A stretch of DNA of 64,000 bases from an uncultured Verrucomicrobiota bacterium. Lineage in GTDB: Bacteria; Verrucomicrobiota; Verrucomicrobiia; Limisphaerales; UBA9464. The translations under genes were made by a program, and so were the position numbers. The stretch covers positions 578 through 64,577 of the forward strand of contig CAYYSX010000001.1 in NCBI GenBank assembly GCA_964474315.1, read 5' to 3'. How positions within the stretch are numbered: position 1 is the stretch's first letter; every line of letters starts with the position of its first letter. The notes under the pieces were generated by a model, which was not told the DNA's origin, did no database searches, and was given only the letters and a program-made list of their open reading frames with translations. This document shows, in pieces, positions 6,575-63,149 of the stretch.

Positions 6575-8428
6575 TCATTCCGCGGGCGGTCGCCGCACCA
6601 CTTTCACGGCGATATCCTCGTCGAACTGAGGCAAAACCAAAGCGGCCTTTCCTCCGGACGCCTGGAACTTCTGGCGCGCCACCCAACGGCCCGACACTGG
6701 ATTCAACCAATCGGCCTGCCATTCGCCATCGGACAAGGCCAGCGTCAGAAACGTGGACCGTCCGCCGCCCGAGGCCGGGAATGGGGAGTCCGTTCCCCAG
6801 GCAAAGTGAACCTGCGGATCCGTCCGGATCTGCCATGCCCGATCAAAATCCCGCCCCTGAAAATACCGTCCGGTCAGCCCCGGCCCGGCCCCCGCCTCGG
6901 GATGGAGTGCCTGATGCGGAACGGCCTGGCGCCGCCGGTCAGGGCGCGACCATTCCAGTTTCATCACCGCCTGACCGCCATTGTAGAAGTACTCCAGCCG
7001 CACCGGATGCCGCCGGCCTGCTTCGAGGCGAACCACCGCGGTATCTTCCGTCTCGCTGTGATCGGTCCAGTTGTCGATCAACAGTCGCTCATCGAGCCAA
7101 AGTCGTACCCCGTCGTTGGAAAACGTGTGCAGGGTGTAGTCTCCGGATTCCGGTGCTTCGAGAAATCCCGTCCACCGGACCGAGAATCGGGTCACCACTC
7201 CCGGTCGGAAATAAGCCGCAACCACCTTTCCCGGTTCGACCAGCGCCCGGGCCGTGTGACTGGGCGGAACGCCTTCCAGAAAGACCGTGTCGTCGGGATG
7301 CATACGAACCAACGGAAGACTGCGGAGGAAATCGCCGAGATGTTTCATTTCGCGGCGGAACTGCGGATTGCCTCCACCCGGCTGCGTCGCGGGATAAGCG
7401 AAGGTCCCGTCCTCGAATCCCACCGCGAACGAATAGTCCAGGTGGTTGAACAACCCTCCCCCCGCGATCAGGAAATCCCAACCCTCCATCCGATAGGGGG
7501 CGTTGTTCGTGCCGCGGAAACCGGTCTCGTTGTCGCCAATGACCCGGTTTAGACTCCAGTTCTGCGCCACGGCGTCCGGCGGGGTTGCATAATGAAAATT
7601 GAAGATCGAAACGGCCGGATGCGGATGGGTCACCACGGCGGTGTTGTTGGCGATGTTCCAGGAGATGAGCTTGGGGTGCGGATGCGACTGCTGCGCGGCG
7701 GCAATCACCTCGGTCAGATGTCGCTGCCAGTCATCGGGGGTTTGGGTGACATAGGGTTCGTTGATGAGTTCGTAGTAGATGTTGCCGAAGTCCTGCAGCT
7801 CCGCGACGAACTTGCGAGCCAACTCCTCTTGGTGGGCCAGGTAGGGACCGCTCTGATTCAAAGTAAGAACGTCCTCGCGCCGGATCGACGGCAAACCGTT
7901 GATGTTATTCTGCGGGTGGTAGGGACTCAGTTGCCACTGCCGGTCTTCATAGAGCACGCAGAACAGGGCGACTTCGACGATGATTCCCCGGCGTTCGGCA
8001 TGACTGAGGAAGTCGCGGAGCCGGCGAAAATAAGCCTCATCCCAGCGGTCGAGATCGAACTTGTTGCCGCCGCCCGCGTAGCCGGGCTGGTCGCTCCGGG
8101 CATAGGGGGATAGAAAGCGTCCCGGCGCCGGAGCGAGCGTGTTGCGCTCAATGTTGAACGCGCCCGGCGGCTCGACGTACATGCCCCCGGTGAAGAGGCG
8201 GGTGTGGTTGAGGCCGTCCTGGGCCAGCGTGTCGAGGTACTTGCGGAAATCGAAATCGGCATTGAGCACGGCGCCGTAGTGTTCAGCGGAAGTCAGCAGG
8301 ATCACCGGTTTCCCTCGCCATTCGAGATACCGCGGGTTGGCTGGGTGTAGCTTTAAGGTATCCCCCGCAGTGGCCGCCGCCGCCGGAACCGCCAGGACCA
8401 AGGCGAACAGGAGAAGATGAAGGCGCAT
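6575..8428 (-). CDS. secreted clan GH-A (GH5-like) glycoside hydrolase with a C-terminal PA14 domain
   Basis: The signal peptide is MRLHLLLFALVLAVPAAAA. The NEP acid/base motif is in IYYELINEPYV. The PA14-like segment is FSVRWTGFLEAPESGDYTLHTFSNDGVRLWLDERLLIDNW...VRLEYFYNGGQAVMKLEWS. Confidence 0.7.
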   Translation of the reverse strand: MRLHLLLFALVLAVPAAAATAGDTLKLHPANPRYLEWRGKPVILLTSAEHYGAVLNADFDFRKYLDTLAQDGLNHTRLFTGGMYVEPPGAFNIERNTLAPAPGRFLSPYARSDQPGYAGGGNKFDLDRWDEAYFRRLRDFLSHAERRGIIVEVALFCVLYEDRQWQLSPYHPQNNINGLPSIRREDVLTLNQSGPYLAHQEELARKFVAELQDFGNIYYELINEPYVTQTPDDWQRHLTEVIAAAQQSHPHPKLISWNIANNTAVVTHPHPAVSIFNFHYATPPDAVAQNWSLNRVIGDNETGFRGTNNAPYRMEGWDFLIAGGGLFNHLDYSFAVGFEDGTFAYPATQPGGGNPQFRREMKHLGDFLRSLPLVRMHPDDTVFLEGVPPSHTARALVEPGKVVAAYFRPGVVTRFSVRWTGFLEAPESGDYTLHTFSNDGVRLWLDERLLIDNWTDHSETEDTAVVRLEAGRRHPVRLEYFYNGGQAVMKLEWSRPDRRRQAVPHQALHPEAGAGPGLTGRYFQGRDFDRAWQIRTDPQVHFAWGTDSPFPASGGGRSTFLTLALSDGEWQADWLNPVSGRWVARQKFQASGGKAALVLPQFDEDIAVKVVRRPPAE

Positions 8429-19483: not shown

Positions 19484-20237
19484 GCATTCACAAGTTGTCG
19501 GTAAAGGTGCTGGACTACTGGGAAAGGGTGCAGGAAGGAGGGCGTGAAGGAAGAACTGGTGGTGCAAGGGCGGAGGTTGGGGTGTGAGGATCTGGCGTGG
19601 TTGGGGGTGGATTGAGGAGCATCCGCAGTGGAGCCGCAAACGGATCGCCCAGGAGCTTTGCCGGCGGCCGTCCAGGCGGAGGCCCAGCGGCGGGGTTTGG
19701 GACGCGCCCAGGTGGTGTACCTGGTGATGGACGGCGCGGTCTGGCTCTGGCTCTTGGCCGAGGACCGGTTCCAGACGGCGCTCAAAACCCTTGATTTTCA
19801 TCACGCCCGCGAACACCTCCAGGCCGTCGCCGAGGCCTTGCACGGAGCCGAAACCGACGCTGCCAAAGCGTGGTTGAAGCCCCTGCTCCACCAACTCCGC
19901 CACGGCCAGGAAACCCGTGTCGTACGAAGCTTGGAAGAACTGCTCAACTCACCCGCGGCGCGGACGGCCCAGGACCCCACGACGACCACGCGCGAAGTCA
20001 GCTACTTCCAAGACCATCGGGACCACCTTCACTCCCAGAAAATGGAGCGGGCCGGAGCTCCCATGGGCAGCGGGGCCGTCGAGTCCCTGGGCAAACAGCT
20101 CCAACGCCGTCTCCGCGGCTGTGGCCAGTTCTGGACCCGCTCAGGTCTCACCCACCTCCTCCGCCTCTGCGTCCTCGTCAAAAACAACGACGATCCCCTC
20201 CTCTGGAACTGACCCCTTACCGACAACTTGTGAATGC
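19484..20237. mobile_element. decayed, internally deleted IS element bounded by perfect 21-bp terminal inverted repeats
   Basis: The left repeat GCATTCACAAGTTGTCGGTAA (19484-19504) is the exact reverse complement of 20217-20237. The interior holds an HTH-like fragment (EDLAWLG / WIEEHPQWSRKRIAQELC), frameshifted at a G-run near 19603, plus a transposase C-terminal fragment. I saw no target-site duplication. Confidence 0.8.
19628..20212 (+). pseudogene. DDE transposase C-terminal fragment (ISKra4/UPF0236-like by recollection)
   Basis: The fragment is 194 aa. It contains VYLVMDGAVWLW, DFHHAREHL, FQDHRDHLH and GSGAVESLGKQLQRRLRGCGQFWTRSGLTHLL. The catalytic N-terminal two-thirds is missing. The stop lies 4 nt before the right inverted repeat. 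Confidence 0.7.
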
Positions 20238-20285: not shown

Positions 20286-21083
20286 TCAAAACGCGCCGCG
20301 ATAGAACTTCGTGGGATCGTCGGTTTGGGTGTCCGTCTCAGGACTCAACCCGAAATCACCGCTCCGCAGCGTGGCGCCTTTGCGGTATTCTGCGTGTCCG
20401 TCGCAGAACAGAAGGTTGCCACCCTTGTCGTGCAGAGCGGAGTAGAGTTCGTGGGTACGGCTGATGTTGTCATGCCACCACGTGTACTCGGCTTCCGCTG
20501 GATCCGCCCCTGGATCCAGCTTCCAAGGCCGCAGGCCAGCGACATGGACGCGATTGTAGGTTTCCTGGAGAAAAACGATGGCTGCCGGCTGCAGCACTTC
20601 CCGGAGTTCCCGCCCCATCACGACCCCGTTGCCGTAGTAGGAGGTACTGCTGGTGGCGGTGGGCACTTCGTCGGGAATGGGAGAGGGTTTTGCGCTCGGA
20701 CACGAGTAAATCCCATTTTGTCGGGTCTGAGTGTAAGGCAACAAGAGCTTGAGGTAAGACGGTTCAGGATTGTCTGCGTAATACACCACCTGGCTGTGCA
20801 TCACTGGAAGTCGGCGGTAGTCGTCCGCATACAGCATGAGGGCCACCCCAATCTGCCGCATGTTGCTCAGGCAGACGACCCGGCGCGCCCGCTCCTTGGC
20901 CCGGGCGAGTCCGGGCAGCAACAGTCCAGCCAGGATGGCAATGATGGCAATAGCCACCAATAGCTCGATGAGGGTAAAGCCGCCTTGATAAGCCCGCCGT
21001 CGGTGCCAGATGTTTAAAAAGGGCCAGGGAGTCGAACGGGTGTTTTCCGCGCGCCGACAGAGATTCGAACCGGGTTTCCACAT
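20286..21083 (-). CDS. prepilin-type N-terminal cleavage/methylation protein (DUF1559, H-X9-DG type pseudopilin)
   Basis: [30 protein letters not shown] is followed by CLSNMRQIG. The C-terminal motif is [16 protein letters not shown]. The leader before the GFTLIE cleavage motif is unusually long (35 aa). Confidence 0.8.
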
Positions 21084-21150
21084 GACTCCCGCAAAGGTTC
21101 CATTTGTTCTGAATTATTCCAGCCCAGATTGATCGACCGTTGCCGCGCCC

Positions 21151-21507
21151 TCACCCCCCCCGGTACACGCACCGTGCCGTGCAGGTTTCGGCGACCACCA
21201 GTTCCCGAAGCAGCGGCAGACCGGGCTGGAGTCGCTCCCAGATCCATTTCGCCAAGAGCTCGCTGGTCGGGTTCTCCAGGCCGGGAATCTCGTTCAGATA
21301 GTGATGGTCCAATTGCCGGAAAATGGGGGCAAAGGCGGCCTTGATGTCGGCGTAGTCCATGACCCAGCCGAGGTGGGGGTCCAGTGGCCCCTCCACCACG
21401 ACTTCAACTCGGAAGCTGTGTCCGTGCAGCCGCGCGCATTTATGGCCGGGCGGAACGTGGGGAAGCCGATGGGCGGCTTCGAATTGAAAGGTGCGGCGTA
21501 GTTCCAT
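21151..21507 (-). CDS. queD: 6-carboxy-5,6,7,8-tetrahydropterin synthase (QueD/PTPS family)
   Basis: Motifs are FEAAHRLP, the C-x3-HGH motif in CARLHGHSF, and DHHYLNEI. The start is at MELRR (21507), 7 nt after the stop of the upstream gene. Confidence 0.85.
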
Positions 21508-21514
21508 GATCCAT

Positions 21515-22939
21515 TCAGACGGTTTCCCAGTCGGTCCAACTGACCAGCTCCCCGAGGGCCGGACGGCCATCATGACGCCAGGAGGCGGGCGGTTCCTGCA
21601 TCCGGCCCAACGGACAGATGCGACTCACACCCCACCGCGCGAGTAAGGGGGCCAGCTCGGTCAAGCGGCTTTCACTTAAGGCGATGCCCAGCGTGCTGAC
21701 CCGACCTCGCACGGGTTCCGCTTGATGCAGGGCCTCGGCGAGATCGCGGCAGGGCTTCACGTAGATAAATCGGTTGAGGCAGGAAGCTTGGAAGCGCGCA
21801 TCGTCTTCAAACACCACGGTCCAGGCGGTCGAATTGGTGCTGCTCCAGACTCGGGTGGCGCCTTGGGGCGGCTCGAAGAATACGCCCCGAGGCATGGTGT
21901 GGGCCTCATCCCTGCTGGCGGCGTGTCGGGCGCCGCGCAATTCATGCAGGGACCTTCGGCTGGCCAGTTCCGCCGAAGTTTCCACCGGCAGATCTCCGCG
22001 CGGCTCGGCCAGCTCCCGCTCGGCCAGCGCTTGGGCGAGTTGTTCCGCAAATCCTTCCGGGGAAACCGAACCTCGTTCCTCTACATAAATCACATGAGGC
22101 GAAAGACATCCAAGCTGATTCCACGCCACCACATCGGCCGCGGCCCGGGTGGCGGTCTTGCGCGCGAGGAAGCTCGACAACTGGTCGCTTCCCACAAAAG
22201 CGAAACTGAGTCGATGCCCATACGCCACGAGGCGGCATCCTCCAGGCAGGCGGGTACGCACCGAGGACACAGTTTCGTCGGTGCCATGGACCGTCACGCA
22301 CTCGGCTTCCGCGAAGACGGTCTCCTCCAGAGCCGCATTGCCGCCGGGCCAGACGGCCATTTCCAAGCAGGCCCCCAGCTTCGGTTCCAAATCGGCCAGG
22401 GAATGGGCGTAGAGCCGGGGTAACACGGTTCCGTGTCGGGAGAGCTTCATGAATTGGGCCGACTTGGTCAGCACGCCGAGGGTCAGGGACATCATCGCTG
22501 AATTCGGCAGGTTTCCCGCCGCCAAGTGAACCAACAGGTCGGGCCCACGCGCCAGCGCGAGGCGGCCTTGCCGCAGTTCGGAGGCGGGCGCGGCGAACTC
22601 GTCGAGGCGGCGGGCATCCCCCAAGTCCTGCGTGAGCAGCGCGTTGAGATGCTCGACCGTCAGGCTGCGAAAGAAGGCGTCGAGACCGCGGGCCAGCGTT
22701 ACCGGTCCGAAGCCCGTTTCGGCCGAAGCCAGTTCCAGCGCGGACTGCCGCAGACCAAAGCCGGGGTCCAGCCACCGTTCCGCATTGTACGCCAGCAGTT
22801 CCACCAATTCGGACGTCCGGCGCTGCGCCAGCCAGTTGGCCCGGTTGCGCTTCACGGCGACGCAGGCTTCGCGCAGGAGCTGCGGGGAGATCGAGGCCTC
22901 GGGAGGCAAGTCGGCCAGGAACAGGTTGGGCAACGGCAT
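21515..22939 (-). CDS. LuxC-like acyl-CoA/acyl-protein reductase (aldehyde-forming)
   Basis: The protein is 474 aa. [30 protein letters not shown] and the candidate catalytic Cys in [15 protein letters not shown] fit the LuxC family as I recall it. The start lies 4 nt after the luxE-like stop. Confidence 0.7.
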
Positions 22940-22943
22940 GAGA

Positions 22944-24044
22944 TCAGCGTGGTTCAGCCGACATCAGGGAACAACCTCGGGCCTCGGCTTGGGGCGCCCG
23001 CCCTAAGAGCTCCAAGCCGTCGCCCCGACGGATCGCCAGGTCGTTCGTCTGGAGGGCCAGCACCGACCAGACATTGGCGAGGTCGATCACTCGGACGAGT
23101 CCCGCTTCTCCCTCCGCGACTTCACGGCCGGTTTCAGGAGAGATGACGAGGACCCGAGCCCAGGGCGGAAAGCGGAGCACTCCGGAGGGCCATTCTTCGG
23201 AACCCTCCCCGGTGTAGGCTTGGGAGCTGAGTTCGCACATACCGTATTCAGTAACGATGGCGTGGCGCGGAACCCCCAAGGCCTCCGACAGCGCCTGATG
23301 CAGGTCGGAACGCTCCAGTTCCCGTGATCGGCCTTTGTAGCCACCGGTTTCCATGATCCATGAACCGGGCGGAAGAAGGGCCGGGGAGCAGTCACCAAGG
23401 GCATTGAGTAGATGGACGAAATTGAAGGCCGTTCCACAGAGCAACAGTGGTTCCCGGGCGGCGCGGATTTGCTGGGTCACGGAGGTGGTATCCACGATCC
23501 ACCCCTCCGGAGCGACCATCCCAGCAAACCGGGCACGTCCCGGCCAGAATTCGCCGGCCAGCACCCCGAGCATCTGCGCCAGAGAGGAATGGGGAGCTGC
23601 TTCCGGCGGAGGGGTGAGAGAAAGCAGGGTCCGAGGCAGTTGTAAGGTGTTGAATCGCCACCGGAAACCATGACGGACCGAGGCCGCATAAAGGTCCAGC
23701 GATGCGGCGTGATGGAAATGTCGGCTGGGAATCTGTGCGGTCGTGCCGCTCGAACGGAACTCGGTTGTTCGCCCTTCCGGAGGAATGGCAGTCACTTCCA
23801 GCTCCTTGAAGGCCGCGGTCGGCAGGGAAGGAAGGTCGTTCCAGTGAAGATGGGTGGAGCGATCCCTCCCCTCTTTGCCGGCCTGTTGACACCAGACCCG
23901 ATAGGCGGGGTTACCTTGGAGTTGCAGCCGGAAGAGTTCTTCAGCCAAGGCAGCGAACTCCGCGTCCAACGCCGGGCCGGGTTCTGGAATACGGCGGAGA
24001 AAGGCGCCGATTCGGCGGGCGAAATGATGGAGATCGTTGATCAT
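22944..24044 (-). CDS. LuxE-like acyl-protein synthetase (adenylate-forming, PaaK/ANL-related)
   Basis: Motifs include FRSSGTTAQ (adenylation P-loop), GTAFNFVHLL, METGGYKGRS and TEYGMCELSSQAY. I chose the start at MINDLHH (24044). The 74-codon upstream ORF extension runs through the intergenic repeat and is rejected. Confidence 0.7.
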   Translation of the reverse strand: MINDLHHFARRIGAFLRRIPEPGPALDAEFAALAEELFRLQLQGNPAYRVWCQQAGKEGRDRSTHLHWNDLPSLPTAAFKELEVTAIPPEGRTTEFRSSGTTAQIPSRHFHHAASLDLYAASVRHGFRWRFNTLQLPRTLLSLTPPPEAAPHSSLAQMLGVLAGEFWPGRARFAGMVAPEGWIVDTTSVTQQIRAAREPLLLCGTAFNFVHLLNALGDCSPALLPPGSWIMETGGYKGRSRELERSDLHQALSEALGVPRHAIVTEYGMCELSSQAYTGEGSEEWPSGVLRFPPWARVLVISPETGREVAEGEAGLVRVIDLANVWSVLALQTNDLAIRRGDGLELLGRAPQAEARGCSLMSAEPR

Positions 24045-24218
24045 TGGCGGTTTTGCAGCAGAACCCGAAGGTTTTCCTGGCTGGTTTTCCGCGACAGTCA
24101 GGAGAGAGGTTGAGTACTGGAATCGGCCGGGGATCGCAAGCCGGCCGGCGGGGGGGCATCCCTCAGGTTGGCGCATCTTGCGGTTTGTCCTTAAAGCCGC
24201 GGGCCGAGCCCCTTCCTC

Positions 24219-24266
24219 AAGCTCCAAAAACCAAGTTCCAAGCTCCAAAGAAGCTCCAAGTTCCAA
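24219..24266 (+). repeat. GYTCCAA-heptamer intergenic repeat, copy 1 (full unit 24171-24266)
   Basis: The core is AAGCTCCAAAAACCAAGTTCCAAGCTCCAAAGAAGCTCCAAGTTCCAA. The unit begins GCGCATCTTG at 24171. Confidence 0.9.
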
Positions 24267-24337
24267 CGGCCAAGCGCCCCCAAACCTCCCCAGACCTCGC
24301 TTCCCGAGATGGTTCGAGCGGGGAACCCAGGTGGTGG

Positions 24338-24380
24338 GAGCTTGAGTCTTTGGAGCTTGGAACTTGGTTTTTGGAGCTTT
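24338..24380 (-). repeat. GYTCCAA-heptamer intergenic repeat, copy 2 (inverted partner of copy 1)
   Basis: 24348-24379 is the exact reverse complement of 24219-24250 (32 bp). The spacer is 97 nt. Confidence 0.9.
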
Positions 24381-24510
24381 CCTGCCCCCTTCTTCTCAGC
24401 GCGGCGGCGCGACTGGGACGGGGGCGAGAGTTCTTCGACGCGGCCGTGCCCATGGGCCGCCCGGCGGGCGGGGACGGCGCAGCGCGCCATCCCTACCGGC
24501 GGTTGGAACC

Positions 24511-25848
24511 TCATCGGCGCAGGTCGAGCGCGACCAAGCGGTCCTCGCTCCGCAGGTACAACCGGCCTCCCGAAAGCACCGGGCCGGCCCAGCACGGGTA
24601 ATGCAGCGACGGCACCTGCCAGCGGGCTAGTTCGACACAGCGTCCGGGATCGGGACGGAAGATGCCGAACAGGCCGCCTTCCCCGAGTGCGTACAACTTG
24701 CCGTCGGCAGCGATCAAGGATCCACGACCGAAGGAATCCGGCTGCTTGGACGAGAATTTGGCCCAGCGTTCGTCGCGTTCCCAAGCAAGGGATCCCGTCG
24801 CGAATTCCACACAACGGAGCCGGGCATCGGGTTCATTGCGTCCACTGAAGGCGTACAGATGCGATCCCACCAGGACCGGTGTGCTCCAATGCATTTCCAA
24901 GGAGAGTCCGCGCCAGAGTTCGGTGACGGCGTTGTTTCCCGGGGCGACGCGAAGCAGAAGCGAGCCAGCTCGGTAGTAAGCGCTGGAGATCAAGACGTCG
25001 TTGTCGCGCACGACCGGATTGGCGGCATTGACCGATTCATCGACCCGGGCCCGGAACCAGCGTTGAAACCGGACGGCGCCGTTGGTCGGGTTGACCCCGA
25101 CCAGTCCTTGGCGAAGGAAACAGAGGACCACGCGTTCTCCATTCAACGTGGTGGCGACCGGCGAGGCGTAGCTGGCCTGCTTTTCCCAGCGCTTCCACCG
25201 GACCGGTGCTTCGCCGGGCCAGCCCAGCATGGGTTGGCCTTGCCAATTGGTTTCTCCGACGGACTCCCAGAGCGTCCGGCCGGTTTCCGGATCGAAGGCG
25301 ACGACTCCGGAGTTGGGCTGGCCGCCGACCATCACGATCAGGCGACCGGATTCCAGGATGGGGGCCGAACCCACCCCGAAGAAGGCTTCGGGAATTTCGA
25401 AATCGTTTGCCGTCTGACGCTGCCAGCGTTGCTCGCCGGTTTCGAGGTCGAAGGCGGTCAGGCGGCCCTCCGCTCCGAAGGTGAACACCGTGGCGTTGGT
25501 GATCAGCGGGGCGCACCGGGGACCGTTGTTGTAGCCATAAGGATCTTGAAACGAAGTGGGATACGCGTTGGTCCACAACGTCCGGCCCGTCACCGGATCC
25601 AAGGCAGAAAGAATCTCCGCCGCTCCGATCCGATGGAACAGGAGGAGTTTTCCCGAGCCGACGGAGGGGGCGGCGTAGCCGGTTCCGACCGCCAGGTCGA
25701 AGACGATCGGCGCTCCCGTGGGTGGGAGGCTTTCGACGAGGTTGGTTTCGGAGGAATGATTGTCGCCGTTTGGACCGAGAAATCGGGGCCAATCCGCCGC
25801 GAGGGAGACCCCTAAAACCAAACTACAACAGGCGACGCGGAACAACAC
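24511..25848 (-). CDS. secreted PQQ-like/BamB-like beta-propeller repeat protein
   Basis: The signal peptide is followed by ADWPRFLGPNGDN. Repeated W/G-rich blade motifs are present (TGRTLW, GEQRWQ, GRTLWE, GSLAWE). Confidence 0.75.
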   Translation of the reverse strand: MLFRVACCSLVLGVSLAADWPRFLGPNGDNHSSETNLVESLPPTGAPIVFDLAVGTGYAAPSVGSGKLLLFHRIGAAEILSALDPVTGRTLWTNAYPTSFQDPYGYNNGPRCAPLITNATVFTFGAEGRLTAFDLETGEQRWQRQTANDFEIPEAFFGVGSAPILESGRLIVMVGGQPNSGVVAFDPETGRTLWESVGETNWQGQPMLGWPGEAPVRWKRWEKQASYASPVATTLNGERVVLCFLRQGLVGVNPTNGAVRFQRWFRARVDESVNAANPVVRDNDVLISSAYYRAGSLLLRVAPGNNAVTELWRGLSLEMHWSTPVLVGSHLYAFSGRNEPDARLRCVEFATGSLAWERDERWAKFSSKQPDSFGRGSLIAADGKLYALGEGGLFGIFRPDPGRCVELARWQVPSLHYPCWAGPVLSGGRLYLRSEDRLVALDLRR

Positions 25849-44359: not shown

Positions 44360-44782
44360 TCAGGTTTCCCCGAAGACATGCAGCACCAGCCGGCGCTGAT
44401 GGGGCGAGGTTCGATGCTCCCAAACATAGATTCCTTGCCAGGTTCCGAGCGCCAGACTGCCCCGCACCACTGGGATGGAGAGCTGGACCCCCAGCAAGGC
44501 CGAGCGGATGTGGGCCGGCATGTCATCCTCGCCTTCGGCCGTATGGACAAACCCACTGTAACCATCCGGAACCAGCTCACTGAAGAAGGTCTCAAAGTCC
44601 CGGCGAACCTCTGGGTCGGCATTCTCCTGAATCACGAGAGAGGCCGAGGTGTGCCGCAGAAACAGCGTGCAAAGTCCCGTCTGGATGCCCGTTTTCCTCA
44701 GCCAGTGGCTGACGTCGCGGGTGACTTCATGGAATCCACGGCTCCGGGTGGGCACGACCAGTTCAGAGATGGCATGAGTCAT
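44360..44782 (-). CDS. yjbQ: YjbQ/UPF0047 family protein (secondary thiamine-phosphate synthase)
   Basis: The protein is 140 aa from MTHAISELV. Motifs are LFLRHTSASLVIQENADP, DMPAHIRSALLG and LGTWQGIYVWEHR. Confidence 0.8.
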   Translation of the reverse strand: MTHAISELVVPTRSRGFHEVTRDVSHWLRKTGIQTGLCTLFLRHTSASLVIQENADPEVRRDFETFFSELVPDGYSGFVHTAEGEDDMPAHIRSALLGVQLSIPVVRGSLALGTWQGIYVWEHRTSPHQRRLVLHVFGET

Positions 44783-44792
44783 GGGAGGAGCT

Positions 44793-45632
44793 TTACGCCG
44801 AACTCTGAGGCGGTGCGAGGCTCCGGGTGAGCGTGGCAAAGGACTCCAGGCTGACCGTTTCGGCACGGGCGGTTGCGGCAATGCCGGCGGTCGCCAACGC
44901 GGCCACCAAACGGTCCGCAGGCCAATGAGGGCGCAACAGCTTCCCCAGCATCTTCCGCCGCTGACTGAAAGCGGTTTTGACAACCCGGGCGAATAGCGGA
45001 ATAGCCTCATCCGGAAGCAAGGGGATGCTCCGCCGCACCAGGGTGACGCAGGCCGAATCCACTTCGGGTACCGGGTGGAAACAGTCGCGCGGGATTTTGA
45101 ACCAGCCGGCTACCTCATAGTGCAGGCCCACGAGCAGGGTCAGGATTCCATAGACCGCGGAGCCCGGCGCAGCAGCCAGGCGTTGAACGACCTCGAGCTG
45201 AAGGGTGGCGACCATCCGCTCGGGAGGCGAAGGGTTGAGGGCGAGTTCCACCAGAATTGGCGATCCCACCGAATACGGCAGGTTCGCCACGAGCTTCCAC
45301 CCGCTCCAGTCGTGCGGCGCGCTCCGCAACCAGTTCAACGCATCCATCTCCAGCAGCTCGAACCGCGAATTCCCTTCCCACCGGTCCCGCAGCACGGCAC
45401 ACAAACGGGCATCCTTTTCCACCGACAGCACCGGTCCTCCCCCGACCAACAGCAGTTCAGTCAGCGGTCCCAGCCCCGGTCCAATCTCCAGAATGCGGTC
45501 GGTCGGAGTGAGTTCGGCCGCCGCCACGATCCGGCGTAGTTGATTGCCGTCGTGGAGGAAGTTCTGACCCAGCGACTTCGTTAGTTGGAGTCCGCGCACT
45601 TCGATCAGGCGGCGCATTTCCGATAAGGTCAT
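44793..45632 (-). CDS. rsmA: 16S rRNA (adenine1518/1519-N6)-dimethyltransferase
   Basis: Motifs are LGQNFLHD, ILEIGPGLGPLTELL and VANLPYSVGSPIL. The start ATG overlaps the upstream stop in an ATGA at 45629-45632. Confidence 0.88.
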   Translation of the reverse strand: MTLSEMRRLIEVRGLQLTKSLGQNFLHDGNQLRRIVAAAELTPTDRILEIGPGLGPLTELLLVGGGPVLSVEKDARLCAVLRDRWEGNSRFELLEMDALNWLRSAPHDWSGWKLVANLPYSVGSPILVELALNPSPPERMVATLQLEVVQRLAAAPGSAVYGILTLLVGLHYEVAGWFKIPRDCFHPVPEVDSACVTLVRRSIPLLPDEAIPLFARVVKTAFSQRRKMLGKLLRPHWPADRLVAALATAGIAATARAETVSLESFATLTRSLAPPQSSA

Positions 45633-47032
45633 GACGAGCCCTTGGGTTGAGTTCGCCGCCGCTGGCGTGGACGGCTGATTGCGTCGAGTCCCTCCCCGAC
45701 GAGGGTCGCGGCGCGGTCCAGATCCGTGCCCTGGATCGTCAACGGTGGAGTGAAGCTCACCACCTCCCCGTGTTCGCCCTCCGGCAGAACGATCAGTCCG
45801 CGTGAAAGCAGCCATTTCACCAACGCCAACGCCTCAGTCGAAGCCGGCTGGTCGGTTTCCGTCCGCAGTTCCAGACCGGCCATCAAGCCCAGCCCGCGCG
45901 CTTGCACCCGCAGCGAACCCGCGGGTGCGGGCAGGGTTTGCAGGTTCTGCAGAAATCGCGCTCCCAACCGGGCACTCCGGTCGGGAAGGGCTTGGCGACG
46001 CAATTCCGCCATCTGCGCCAACGCCATGGCGCAACCGACCGGATGTCCAAGAAAGGTGCTGGTATGAATGGCCTCTCCCTGGCTGGGCGGCCAGCAATCC
46101 ATGAGTTCCGCACGTCCGACACAGGCCGAAAGGGGAAATCCCCCGGTCAAGGCCTTGCCGAGGCAGATCACGTCCGGAACCACGCCGGAGTGCTCACAGG
46201 CAAACCAGCGTCCCGTCCGTCCAAAGCCGGTGTAGATCTCATCGACGACGAGAAGGGCGTCGTGTTCGGTGGCGAGACGGCGCAGCAGAGGCAGGAAACC
46301 CGTCGGAGGAATGCGAATACCGCCCCGAGCCTGAACCGGCTCCACCAGGATGGCGCCGACCGGGCGACGGCGGAAGGCTTGGCGGACGTCGCGTTCGACC
46401 TGCTCCAAGCAGTTAGCTTCAGTCATCCCGCCGCGTCTCTCGCCTGAGCTGGTAGGCCAGTTCACGAACGTGCCGAACTCTCGCAGTTGATTGCGGAAGG
46501 GTTCGCGAAACAGGTCCCGTTGCGTGACATTCAACGCGCCGTAACCCAGCCCATGATACGCTCCGTGGAAGGCGATGATGCCTGGCCGGCCTGTGGCGAG
46601 CCGGGCCGTCTTCAGGGCTGCCTCCACCGCCTCAAATCCGGAGTTGCCGAAAATGGCCTTTCCGCGAGCCGGCTCGGAATCCCTGGACACATCGGGTCGC
46701 GCGGATGCGGCCCACCGTCCAAACGTGAGCTCGCTAAGTGTCTCCGCGAGTTCGGCCTTCAGCGCATGTGGGTGAACATCCCCCATGGCATGCAGAAGCC
46801 GGCTCATTTGCCGCTGGCCGGCGCGGACGACTGCCGGATTGGCATGACCGGCCGCCGCCACGCCGAATGCCGCAGTCAGGTCTAAATAGCGGCGCCCCTC
46901 GGCATCCCACACGCTGCAATTTCGCGCCCGTTCCCACACGATGGGCCATCCTCCGGCCGGATCCACATACGTGATGTTCCGCGACTCGAAGGCAGCCAGT
47001 CGGTTCAGGACGACCTGAGTGGGAGAAGACAT
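45629..47032 (-). CDS. class III (ornithine/GABA-type) PLP-dependent aminotransferase
   Basis: Motifs are DLTAAFGVAAAGHANP, GFEAVEAALKTAR, LVVDEIYTGFGRTG and the PLP lysine context VICLGKALTGG. The ATG is at 47032. An alternative TTG lies at 47047. Confidence 0.8.
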   Translation of the reverse strand: MSSPTQVVLNRLAAFESRNITYVDPAGGWPIVWERARNCSVWDAEGRRYLDLTAAFGVAAAGHANPAVVRAGQRQMSRLLHAMGDVHPHALKAELAETLSELTFGRWAASARPDVSRDSEPARGKAIFGNSGFEAVEAALKTARLATGRPGIIAFHGAYHGLGYGALNVTQRDLFREPFRNQLREFGTFVNWPTSSGERRGGMTEANCLEQVERDVRQAFRRRPVGAILVEPVQARGGIRIPPTGFLPLLRRLATEHDALLVVDEIYTGFGRTGRWFACEHSGVVPDVICLGKALTGGFPLSACVGRAELMDCWPPSQGEAIHTSTFLGHPVGCAMALAQMAELRRQALPDRSARLGARFLQNLQTLPAPAGSLRVQARGLGLMAGLELRTETDQPASTEALALVKWLLSRGLIVLPEGEHGEVVSFTPPLTIQGTDLDRAATLVGEGLDAISRPRQRRRTQPKGSS

Positions 47033-47043
47033 GATTCCGAAGT

Positions 47044-47766
47044 TCAAACCCCCCGCTGGTCAGGCGGCCAGATGAACTTATGCATCTGGAGCTGAAACCG
47101 GACTGGGAGGCGGTCGGCAATGATGGCTTCCACGAGTTCCAGCCGGGTGAGCGGTGTTTGGCCCGGCGGAACCGGCTTCAACGAGGAGTTCTGCTGATGT
47201 GGAGCCAGTGGAGAAACCCACGAGAAGAGCAGGGGACAGACCCCGGCCAGGCCATGACGCGCCATGGTCTCCCGCGCCCACGCATAATCTTCCCGGGTCC
47301 CGATCACGAACTTCACTTCATCGGTCGGGCGTAACAACGGAATATTCTCCCAGCGATTCCGCGCGACTTCACCGCTGCTAGGCGTTTTGAGATCCATGAT
47401 GCGTCGGATCCGTGAATCCAGACGTCCGATGTCATGAGCGCCGCTGGTTTCCACCAGCACGGTCAAGCCATCGTCGCAGATCTCACGCATCAGGTCGGCG
47501 GCCCCTGGCTGAAGAAGGGGTTCACCACCCGTGAATTCGACCAGCGGCAGGTTTTGGCCGGCGACCTCGACGTCGGCATACGGTTCGGCCAGGCGCCGAA
47601 CTTCGGACTGGATGTCGTCGAAGGAGCGTCGTTTCCCTTCGGTAAAGGCGTAGGCGGTGTCGCAATACGAGCAGCGGAGGTTGCAGCCGGTCAGGCGCAC
47701 GAAGACGCAGGGTAACCCGGCCAACGTGCTTTCGCCCTGCACGCTCAGATATACTTCATTGACCAT
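47044..47766 (-). CDS. queE: 7-carboxy-7-deazaguanine synthase (radical SAM)
   Basis: NEVYLSVQGES is followed by FVRLTGCNLRCSYCDT (the CxxxCxxC-type cluster motif of QueE). The start is at MVNEVY (47766). An alternative ATG lies at 47820. The longer ORF extension runs through the repeat and is rejected. Confidence 0.85.
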   Translation of the reverse strand: MVNEVYLSVQGESTLAGLPCVFVRLTGCNLRCSYCDTAYAFTEGKRRSFDDIQSEVRRLAEPYADVEVAGQNLPLVEFTGGEPLLQPGAADLMREICDDGLTVLVETSGAHDIGRLDSRIRRIMDLKTPSSGEVARNRWENIPLLRPTDEVKFVIGTREDYAWARETMARHGLAGVCPLLFSWVSPLAPHQQNSSLKPVPPGQTPLTRLELVEAIIADRLPVRFQLQMHKFIWPPDQRGV

Positions 47767-47866
47767 CAGGCTGCCGGTCACGACGGGAAGGTAGGGAATG
47801 AGGACGGTTGGGAACAGCATTGGCGAGGCGGAATGAAATCCCTGACCACGAGCCAGCTTCCACAGG

Positions 47867-55191: not shown

Positions 55192-55238
55192 GCGAAAGCT
55201 CCAAAAGCCAAGTTCCAAGCTCCCAAGAAGCTCCAAGG
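55192..55238 (+). repeat. GYTCCAA-heptamer intergenic repeat, copy 6
   Basis: The sequence is GCGAAAGCTCCAAAAGCCAAGTTCCAAGCTCCCAAGAAGCTCCAAGG. It is nearly identical to the reverse complement of 48284-48322. Confidence 0.9.
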
Positions 55239-63054: not shown

Positions 63055-63149
63055 GCGAAAGTTCAAAGCTCAAAAATTGCGGTTAGTCGCGGGGAGAAGC
63101 TCCAAGAGCCAAGCTCCAAGTTCCAAAGAAGTTCCAACCTCCAAGAACC
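63055..63149 (+). repeat. GYTCCAA-heptamer intergenic repeat, copy 7 (expanded)
   Basis: The sequence is GCGAAAGTTCAAAGCTCAAAAATTGCGG...GAGAAGCTCCAAGAGCCAAGCTCCAAGTTCCAAAGAAGTTCCAACCTCCAAGAACC. Confidence 0.85.

Follow-up and report, generated by a model that had tools for sequence, protein, structure and literature searches.

Three minus-strand genes form a tight operon in a 64,000-nucleotide stretch of DNA (the window, that is, the whole stretch analysed here) from an uncultured verrucomicrobial bacterium of the order Limisphaerales (GTDB group UBA9464; GenBank assembly GCA_964474315.1, contig CAYYSX010000001.1, forward-strand positions 578 to 64,577). Two of the encoded proteins resemble LuxE and LuxC, the enzymes that reduce fatty acids in bacterial bioluminescence, and the third is QueD, an enzyme of the queuosine biosynthetic pathway. 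Here we describe this luxE-luxC-queD operon, its relatives in other genomes, and a queE-aminotransferase operon located 23 kb away, which together point to a candidate route for the synthesis of 7-aminomethyl-7-deazaguanine (preQ1) that would bypass the enzymes QueC and QueF. The genes of the operon were delineated through their open reading frames (ORFs) and profile matches as follows:

22944-24044, minus strand: LuxE-like adenylate-forming acyl-protein synthetase, 366 amino acids (aa) (ORF and PF04443)
21515-22939, minus strand: LuxC-like thioester reductase, 474 aa (ORF and PF05893)
21151-21507, minus strand: QueD, 6-carboxy-5,6,7,8-tetrahydropterin (CPH4) synthase, 118 aa (PF01242, TIGR03367)

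Only 4 nucleotides (nt) separate luxE from luxC (22940-22943) and only 7 nt separate luxC from queD (21508-21514). This packed arrangement had been described in an earlier interpretation of the window that was made without database searches (the sequence-only reading), and our check of the ORFs bore it out; all of the protein motifs quoted at that time, CARLHGHSF included, were found in the sequences as well. We take the ATG at position 24044 as the start of the luxE-like gene, whose maximal ORF extends to a TTG at position 24266. The operon is flanked by a gene for a pyrroloquinoline quinone (PQQ)-like beta-propeller protein on its upstream side and by a prepilin-type gene on its downstream side; as the sequence-only reading had also stated, neither lux or fatty-acid genes nor queC or queF are found next to the operon in the window.

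Searches with profile models confirmed the family assignments of all three proteins. The LuxE-like protein matched Pfam family PF04443 with 45.9 bits (cutoff 24.9; E = 4.7e-12) and the LuxC-like protein matched PF05893 with 222 bits (cutoff 21; E = 1.4e-65). Both fell far short of the NCBIfam equivalog models that define the true bioluminescence enzymes, since the LuxE-like protein reached 37 bits against the LuxE model NF052244 (cutoff 550), and the LuxC-like protein 45 bits against the LuxC model NF052251 (cutoff 750). In the PDB, each protein had a single match, namely the corresponding subunit of the LuxC-LuxE fatty acid reductase from Photobacterium phosphoreum (PDB 7xc6), with E-values of about 4e-8 (3.9e-8) for the LuxE-like and of 2e-5 for the LuxC-like protein. 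In these alignments, Cys278 of the LuxC-like protein (NQLGCLSPH) coincides with the catalytic cysteine in the DQQACFS segment of chain 7xc6_A, and the C-terminal RGCSL segment of the LuxE-like protein coincides with the acylated KGCSL segment of chain 7xc6_E. The motif surrounding the catalytic cysteine of the LuxC-like protein is retained in all of the 141 homologs inspected, and its C-terminal WRHDGR motif in 121 of them; the SSGT[TS] and C-terminal [KR]GC[SAT] motifs of the LuxE-like protein each occur in 95 of 99 homologs. A search among 1.8 billion cluster representatives revealed 3251 LuxC-like clusters at the 50% identity level, 517 of which had E-values below 1e-30, and these clusters share DQQGCLSPH and C-terminal WHHDGR motifs.

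Because the catalytic cysteines align with those of the 7xc6 structure, and because the motifs of both proteins are kept among their homologs, the conversion of an acid via an acyl-AMP and an acyl-S-enzyme intermediate into an aldehyde has very probably been retained by the Lux-like pair, while its substrate need not be the same. As in the P. phosphoreum enzyme, the work is divided between two proteins, a synthetase with a C-terminal acyl-cysteine and an aldehyde dehydrogenase-like reductase with a catalytic cysteine, and the same chemistry is expected, in which acid, ATP and NADPH yield the aldehyde. The window pair differs from that system in its remote sequence similarity, in the lack of a LuxD-type acyl supply and of a lipid context, and in its partners, which are que genes and an aminotransferase. 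No luciferase or LuxD-type acyltransferase was present among the gene clusters or Pfam assignments of the window and of more than 160 related loci, a survey that relied on these assignments and not on explicit luxA, luxB or luxD probes. With both the equivalog and the gene-context tests failing, the two proteins are best viewed as standing outside of the bioluminescence system, to whose enzymes they are no more than distantly related. Homologs of the module were not found in a scan of viral contigs. We also encountered a natural fusion of the two activities, an 841-aa protein (P0427; PF04443, PF05893 and PF00501) from the aminotransferase-linked group described below, for which no carrier domain was listed; its existence backs the view that the LuxE and LuxC activities are obligate partners.

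The third protein of the operon matched the PTPS family PF01242 with 123 bits (E = 7e-36) and exceeded the cutoff of the QueD equivalog TIGR03367 (108.5 bits; cutoff 89.25). Its Cx3HGH zinc-binding and catalytic motif is present in the form CARLHGH. Since it matches the crystal structure of Escherichia coli QueD (4ntm) over its full length with an E-value of 1e-55, it is predicted to be an ordinary CPH4 synthase and a close ortholog of the E. coli enzyme.

To assess the conservation of the operon, we scanned one genome per species for relatives of the LuxC-like protein. More than 550 were found, and the best 80 (52-75% identity) were analysed with their surroundings; all of these 80 loci stem from metagenome-assembled genomes (MAGs), most of them assigned to the Verrucomicrobiota (Limisphaerales/Pedosphaera) and a few carrying other taxon labels. 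In 74 of the 76 species-level Limisphaerales loci that could be tested, the gene that immediately follows luxC on its strand is queD, with a median gap of about 50 nt, and luxE precedes luxC in each of the 58 loci that were testable for this feature, so that the synteny, on which the sequence-only reading had staked its proposal, is not confined to one genome. In two loci, queD is absent downstream of luxC although the available flank is sufficient. When all ORFs of the 80 loci were clustered, only luxE, luxC and queD proved to be broadly conserved; the flanks vary between genomes, and no other flanking gene family was present in more than 21 loci. An arrangement of this kind is far beyond chance and argues against queD as an accidental passenger. 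The alternative suggested in the sequence-only reading, that queD is simply co-transcribed with a lipid-aldehyde module, was rejected as unsupported, given the lack of lipid genes nearby and scores far below the true-Lux thresholds.

In 21 of the 80 Limisphaerales loci, luxE and luxC are separated by an inserted gene that encodes a permease of the major facilitator superfamily (MFS) with about 420 aa (for instance at positions 6739-8004 of locus L005); the operon in the window lacks it. Next to the inserted permease gene, an L,D-transpeptidase-like ORF was seen in three loci. The permease could transport a queuosine precursor, and transport of 7-cyano-7-deazaguanine (preQ0) and preQ1 by an MFS protein has been demonstrated for salvage (PMC11130926).

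The second operon of interest in the window consists of the following two genes:

47044-47820, minus strand: QueE-like radical S-adenosylmethionine (SAM) enzyme, 7-carboxy-7-deazaguanine (CDG) synthase (TIGR04349, QueE structures; start ATG at 47820 or 47766)
45629-47032, minus strand: class-III (omega) aminotransferase, 467 aa (PF00202)

The best NCBIfam model for the QueE-like protein was TIGR04349 (248 bits; cutoff 300), and all of its top matches were QueE models; it also matched the QueE structures 6nhl, 4njg and 5tgs, and its N-terminal NE..S.QGE motif is conserved. The aminotransferase gene starts 11 nt downstream of queE. Its PF00202 domain was detected on an identical protein of our collection (P0121), and all of its NCBIfam matches remained below the equivalog cutoffs. 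The nearest solved relatives are mostly 4-aminobutyrate, putrescine and acetylornithine aminotransferases, which convert aldehydes into primary amines and back; a few of its PDB neighbors, the top match among them, are racemases or epimerases. The same gene pair is present in the four other verrucomicrobial contigs that we examined, with gaps of 2-30 nt, and thus in five of five when the window is included. The genes upstream of queE differ among these four contigs, and in all four of them a gene of the RrnaAD family (rRNA adenine dimethylase, KsgA-like) follows the aminotransferase gene. The window lacks this neighbor; there, the aminotransferase gene is followed on its strand by a yjbQ-like gene (44360-45010). 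The sequence-only reading had assigned queE to an unrelated operon. This view did not hold, because queE is paired, at a distance of 11 nt, with a class-III aminotransferase gene, and enzymes of this type recur elsewhere as the third partner of LuxE and LuxC.

This became apparent from a metagenome scan that was seeded with distant LuxC-like members and that yielded 80 loci with 27-40% identity to the LuxC-like protein of the window. In nearly all of these distant loci luxE adjoins luxC, and the next most common neighbor is a class-III aminotransferase gene, which is directly adjacent in eleven loci and nearby in another one. Of the 40 distant loci whose sequence extends for 1.3 kb or more on both sides, 16 carry the aminotransferase gene within 3 kb. 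Eight further contexts were drawn from a profile search with source names that include NC10, Nitrospiria, 'Deltaproteobacteria' and Binatia; all eight contain luxE-luxC together with an Aminotran_3 gene within 2 kb, often at a distance of 10-15 nt, amid housekeeping genes. The gene order luxE-luxC-aminotransferase was found in Nitrospiria and Binatia-like MAGs.

Several of the distant loci add que genes to this set. At locus L148, queD, queE, luxE and luxC are contiguous or overlapping, and the encoded QueD reaches 98.8 bits with TIGR03367 (above the cutoff) and the encoded QueE 231 bits. At loci L160 and L161, queE is followed by the aminotransferase gene, one gene on the opposite strand and luxE-luxC; here, QueE scores 298 bits with TIGR04349 (298.4 for L160), and the aminotransferase is 50% identical to that of the window. 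In four loci of NC10/Methylomirabilales bacteria (L088, L090, L147 and L167), queG heads the cluster, with the aminotransferase gene located 10 nt downstream and luxE-luxC thereafter; the QueG protein of the NC10 bacteria scores 385 bits with TIGR00276 (cutoff 200).

A neighbor-joining tree of 90 LuxC-like proteins (bootstrap of 100) placed the queD-linked Limisphaerales clade as sister to the queE-aminotransferase-linked sequences of L160 and L161 (100/100), and both are nested in a larger clade that holds all of the aminotransferase- and queG-linked sequences (73/100). This clade is set apart from others whose members are linked to ATP-binding cassette (ABC) importer and short-chain dehydrogenase (SDR) genes, to alcohol dehydrogenase genes, or to homocitrate-synthase-like and aconitase-like genes. 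Because separate clades carry different partners, ABC importer and SDR genes on the one hand and aminotransferase and que genes on the other, the LuxE/LuxC-like pair is best read as a reusable acid-to-aldehyde module in which what becomes of the aldehyde depends on the partner enzyme. The copy in the window, as judged from the tree and from gene context, is a member of the branch with an aminotransferase partner and a queuosine context. We also searched for clade-specific specificity residues in LuxC but discarded them as a line of evidence, as Q448 alone stands out.

The clade linked to ABC importers and SDRs is represented in cultured bacteria, where luxE and luxC cluster with genes for an ATPase, a permease and a binding protein and with an SDR gene. 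The three examples are:

Azospirillum lipoferum 4B, plasmid AZO_p2 (L171): record positions 208568-214409, AZOLI_RS19245-19270
Pantoea dispersa (L172)
Priestia megaterium (L173)

The matches that we obtained in a plasmid database belong to this clade and show that the family is functionally heterogeneous. The proteins of the three loci are annotated as 'long-chain fatty acid--CoA ligase / acyl-CoA reductase (bioluminescence)', an annotation that is probably wrong. They resemble the proteins of the window in their sequence (30-34% identity), their DQxGCxSP motif and their tight gene coupling, and they differ in their position in the tree and in their partners, which are the importer and the SDR in place of que genes and an aminotransferase. 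Their hosts presumably possess canonical QueC and QueF enzymes. These clusters probably run from an acid via an aldehyde to an alcohol on another substrate. The most divergent LuxC-like clade (26-30% identity; L130, L134, L137, L150 and L154) is found beside homocitrate-synthase-like, aconitase-like and thioredoxin-reductase-like genes, a gene for a 520-aa protein and an unannotated gene for a 390-aa protein, and represents a different biosynthetic cluster.

With these genes and contexts in view, we consider a functional tie of the operon to 7-deazaguanine metabolism very likely. In this respect the suggestion of the sequence-only reading that the Lux-like pair acts on a QueD-derived carboxylate rather than on a fatty acid has fared well: the synteny in the Limisphaerales and the independent clusters with queE, queG and queD in other lineages strongly support a carboxylate-activating and -reducing module in the QueD pathway. 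One could instead assume that the pair, together with the aminotransferase where there is one, acts on an unrelated carboxylate (fatty, dicarboxylic or aromatic), and that queD is a co-transcribed housekeeping passenger in a single verrucomicrobial order. The family is indeed heterogeneous, given the ABC transporter and SDR genes or the homocitrate-synthase-like and aconitase-like genes of its other clades; que genes are not nearby in most luxE-luxC-aminotransferase loci, and clade-specific residues are few. Nevertheless, we find this explanation unlikely because que genes (queD, queE and queG) have come to lie beside the pair independently in no fewer than four lineages, because the aminotransferase gene lies beside queE in all five verrucomicrobial contigs, and because a passenger linkage would not outlast 80 species with shuffled flanks, with lipid genes lacking nearby.

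Two intermediates of the pathway bear a free carboxylate, CPH4, the product of QueD, and CDG, the product of QueE. The sequence-only reading had opted for CPH4 and a 6-formyl-pterin-type product. With this substrate, the pair would make 6-formyl-tetrahydropterin, and the reaction could either lead sideways to a new pterin or be a first step that precedes amination and the ring contraction by QueE. The physical joining of queD to the luxE-luxC operon in the Limisphaerales (74 of 76 loci) and the free carboxylate of CPH4 speak for this possibility, and the order of the enzymatic steps is not fixed by gene order. It is QueE, the enzyme that consumes CPH4 and makes CDG, however, that clusters with the pair at L148 and at L160/L161, and the QueE proteins look canonical (QGE motif, near-threshold TIGR04349 scores), which suggests that CPH4 itself is their substrate. 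QueG acts on tRNA-bound epoxyqueuosine, and its gene heads the NC10 operon. Furthermore, the class-III aminotransferase, the most common partner, implies a sequence from an acid via an aldehyde to a primary amine, and from CDG this amine would be preQ1; a side route to a pterin would leave both the aminotransferase and QueG without an explanation. On these grounds CPH4 is the less likely substrate and we rate its reduction by the pair as improbable, and the parts of the sequence-only reading that concerned CPH4 as the substrate, a 6-formyl-pterin product and a side branch are probably incorrect. With its links to QueE, the aminotransferase and QueG, the module looks like a part of the main pathway that replaces QueC and QueF and not like a branch of it.

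In the route that we propose, GTP would be converted to 7,8-dihydroneopterin triphosphate (H2NTP), from which QueD, encoded in the luxE-luxC-queD operon, would form CPH4, and QueE, encoded at 47044-47820 of the window, would then provide CDG. The LuxE-like protein would adenylate the 7-carboxylate of CDG at the expense of ATP and subsequently bind the acyl group as a thioester to its own C-terminal cysteine; transfer of this group to Cys278 of the LuxC-like protein and reduction with NAD(P)H would yield 7-formyl-7-deazaguanine. Finally, the class-III aminotransferase encoded next to queE would convert the aldehyde into preQ1, the substrate of the tRNA-guanine transglycosylase. By our estimate, QueC (2 ATP and NH3) and QueF (2 NADPH) would be exchanged for one ATP, one NAD(P)H and one transamination. 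This specific conversion of CDG via an aldehyde into preQ1 by the LuxE/LuxC-like proteins and the aminotransferase, bypassing QueC and QueF, is the reading that we favor by a modest degree. As to whether such a previously unrecognised QueC/QueF-independent route to preQ1 exists in Limisphaerales, NC10/Methylomirabilales, Nitrospiria, Binatia-like bacteria and others, we regard the balance as even.

The combination of carboxylic acid reductase (CAR) and omega-transaminase, which takes an aromatic acid via the aldehyde to a benzylic amine, provides a precedent for this type of chemistry, as does vanillin aminotransferase. The overall logic is the same, an ATP- and NADPH-dependent reduction of a (hetero)aromatic acid that is followed by class-III transamination to a primary amine. 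CAR is a single polypeptide with adenylation, peptidyl carrier protein and reductase domains (A-PCP-R) that requires phosphopantetheinylation. The window system is not a type I CAR of this architecture, as its LuxE and LuxC domains reside on separate proteins and a carrier domain is lacking. When compared with the canonical route, in which the nitrile synthase QueC makes preQ0 from CDG and the nitrile reductase QueF converts it into preQ1, the proposed pathway has the same start (CDG), the same end (preQ1), and the same enzymes upstream (QueD and QueE) and downstream (QueG); it differs in the protein families used, in an aldehyde instead of an amide and a nitrile as intermediates, and in nitrogen that would enter via transamination instead of from ammonia. 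De novo queuosine synthesis has been described as needing QueD, QueE, QueC and QueF in order to reach preQ1 (PMC11130926).

It is also conceivable that the module acts on the 7-deazaguanine carboxylate and that its end product is a secreted 7-deazapurine metabolite or a precursor for DNA modification and not preQ1 destined for tRNA. The QueD/QueE pathway is known to feed into 7-deazapurine secondary metabolites and DNA modifications (PMC5699537; PMC6884629), and the MFS transporter gene within the operon of 21 loci would be in line with an exported product. MFS-mediated transport is known for the salvage of preQ0 and preQ1 as well, as cited above, and the loci, with their housekeeping flanks, contain no recurring DpdA-like or natural-product tailoring genes; the linkage of queG points to tRNA queuosine, and the scan of viral contigs gave no homologs. 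A secreted or DNA-directed end product thus seems unlikely to us.

A number of observations weigh against the proposed route from CDG to preQ1. Outside of the four lineages with que linkage, que genes are missing within 10 kb of most aminotransferase-linked loci. The QueE-linked aminotransferase of the Verrucomicrobia (about 450-470 aa) shares only 34-40% identity with the type of about 400 aa that is linked to LuxE-LuxC elsewhere, a type with 53-84% identity within itself, so that two aminotransferase types may have been recruited independently. Within the Limisphaerales, the five genes are split over two separate operons. The most explicit cluster, L148, falls outside of the aminotransferase/que clade in the LuxC tree, a single residue (Q448) distinguishes this clade from the other LuxC-like clades, and the LuxC/LuxE-like proteins of other clades (Pantoea, Priestia, Azospirillum) clearly do something else. 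A preQ1 or other riboswitch was not detected upstream, as an Rfam search of the whole window at the gathering threshold returned a tRNA only, and permissive scans of window positions 23950-24600 and of positions 1-700 of L148 returned nothing relevant. In favor of the route, tblastn with E. coli and Bacillus subtilis probes gave no match to queC or queF in the window and 170 loci (2.1 Mb in total); this is weak evidence, given that the loci represent a small sample of about 17-21 kb per genome.

The 466-nt spacer 5' of luxE contains one further feature of the locus:

24219-24379, strand not applicable: perfect 33-nt inverted repeat with arms at 24219-24251 and 24347-24379

The arms are separated by a 95-nt spacer. 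The inverted repeat is a copy of a dispersed element resembling repetitive extragenic palindromic (REP) sequences and probably marks the upstream boundary of the operon. The 20-mer core of this element, CCAAGTTCCAAGCTCCAAAG, occurs five times in the 64 kb, with 0.01 occurrences expected; besides the copy at luxE, there is a diverged pair 5' of queE (47906-47945/48279-48318) and there are copies at 55208-55227 and 63109-63128. A role of the repeat as a shared regulatory signal of the luxE and queE operons was rejected in view of the copies at positions 55208 and 63109, which are unrelated to que genes. ORF finders translate copies of the repeat into spurious peptides of the 'LELGTWFLEL' type. 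A scan of positions 20900-24600 for promoters and terminators found none, a result that is uninformative, though compatible with a single transcript. About 1 kb downstream of the operon, a fragment that corresponds to the C-terminal part of an ISKra4-family transposase (19628-20212, plus strand; 116 bits, profile positions 245-421 of 422) looks like the remnant of an insertion sequence.

The sequence-only reading knew of no description of the luxE-luxC-queD arrangement, and this agrees with our literature search, which found nothing relevant on a link of LuxE and LuxC with QueD or of LuxE with queuosine, on 7-formyl-7-deazaguanine, on carboxylic acid reduction towards preQ1, or on CDG in combination with an aldehyde and an aminotransferase. 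The enzyme families themselves are known; the new element would be their role at the level of the pathway. QueC, with its nitrile synthesis, and QueF, with its four-electron reduction of a nitrile, are among the most unusual enzymes of queuosine synthesis. If the proposed route is true, it would be a non-orthologous replacement inside a textbook tRNA-modification pathway and would offer another, less costly way through the two steps that are its most unusual. The prediction of de novo queuosine capacity from genomes and metagenomes would then change, since organisms that lack queC and queF might be producers and not salvagers of the queuosine precursors. A first function would be at hand for a large family, about 3250 clusters at the 50% identity level, that currently bears the annotation 'acyl-CoA reductase / bioluminescence', and biocatalysis would gain a natural two-protein reductase for heteroaromatic acids.

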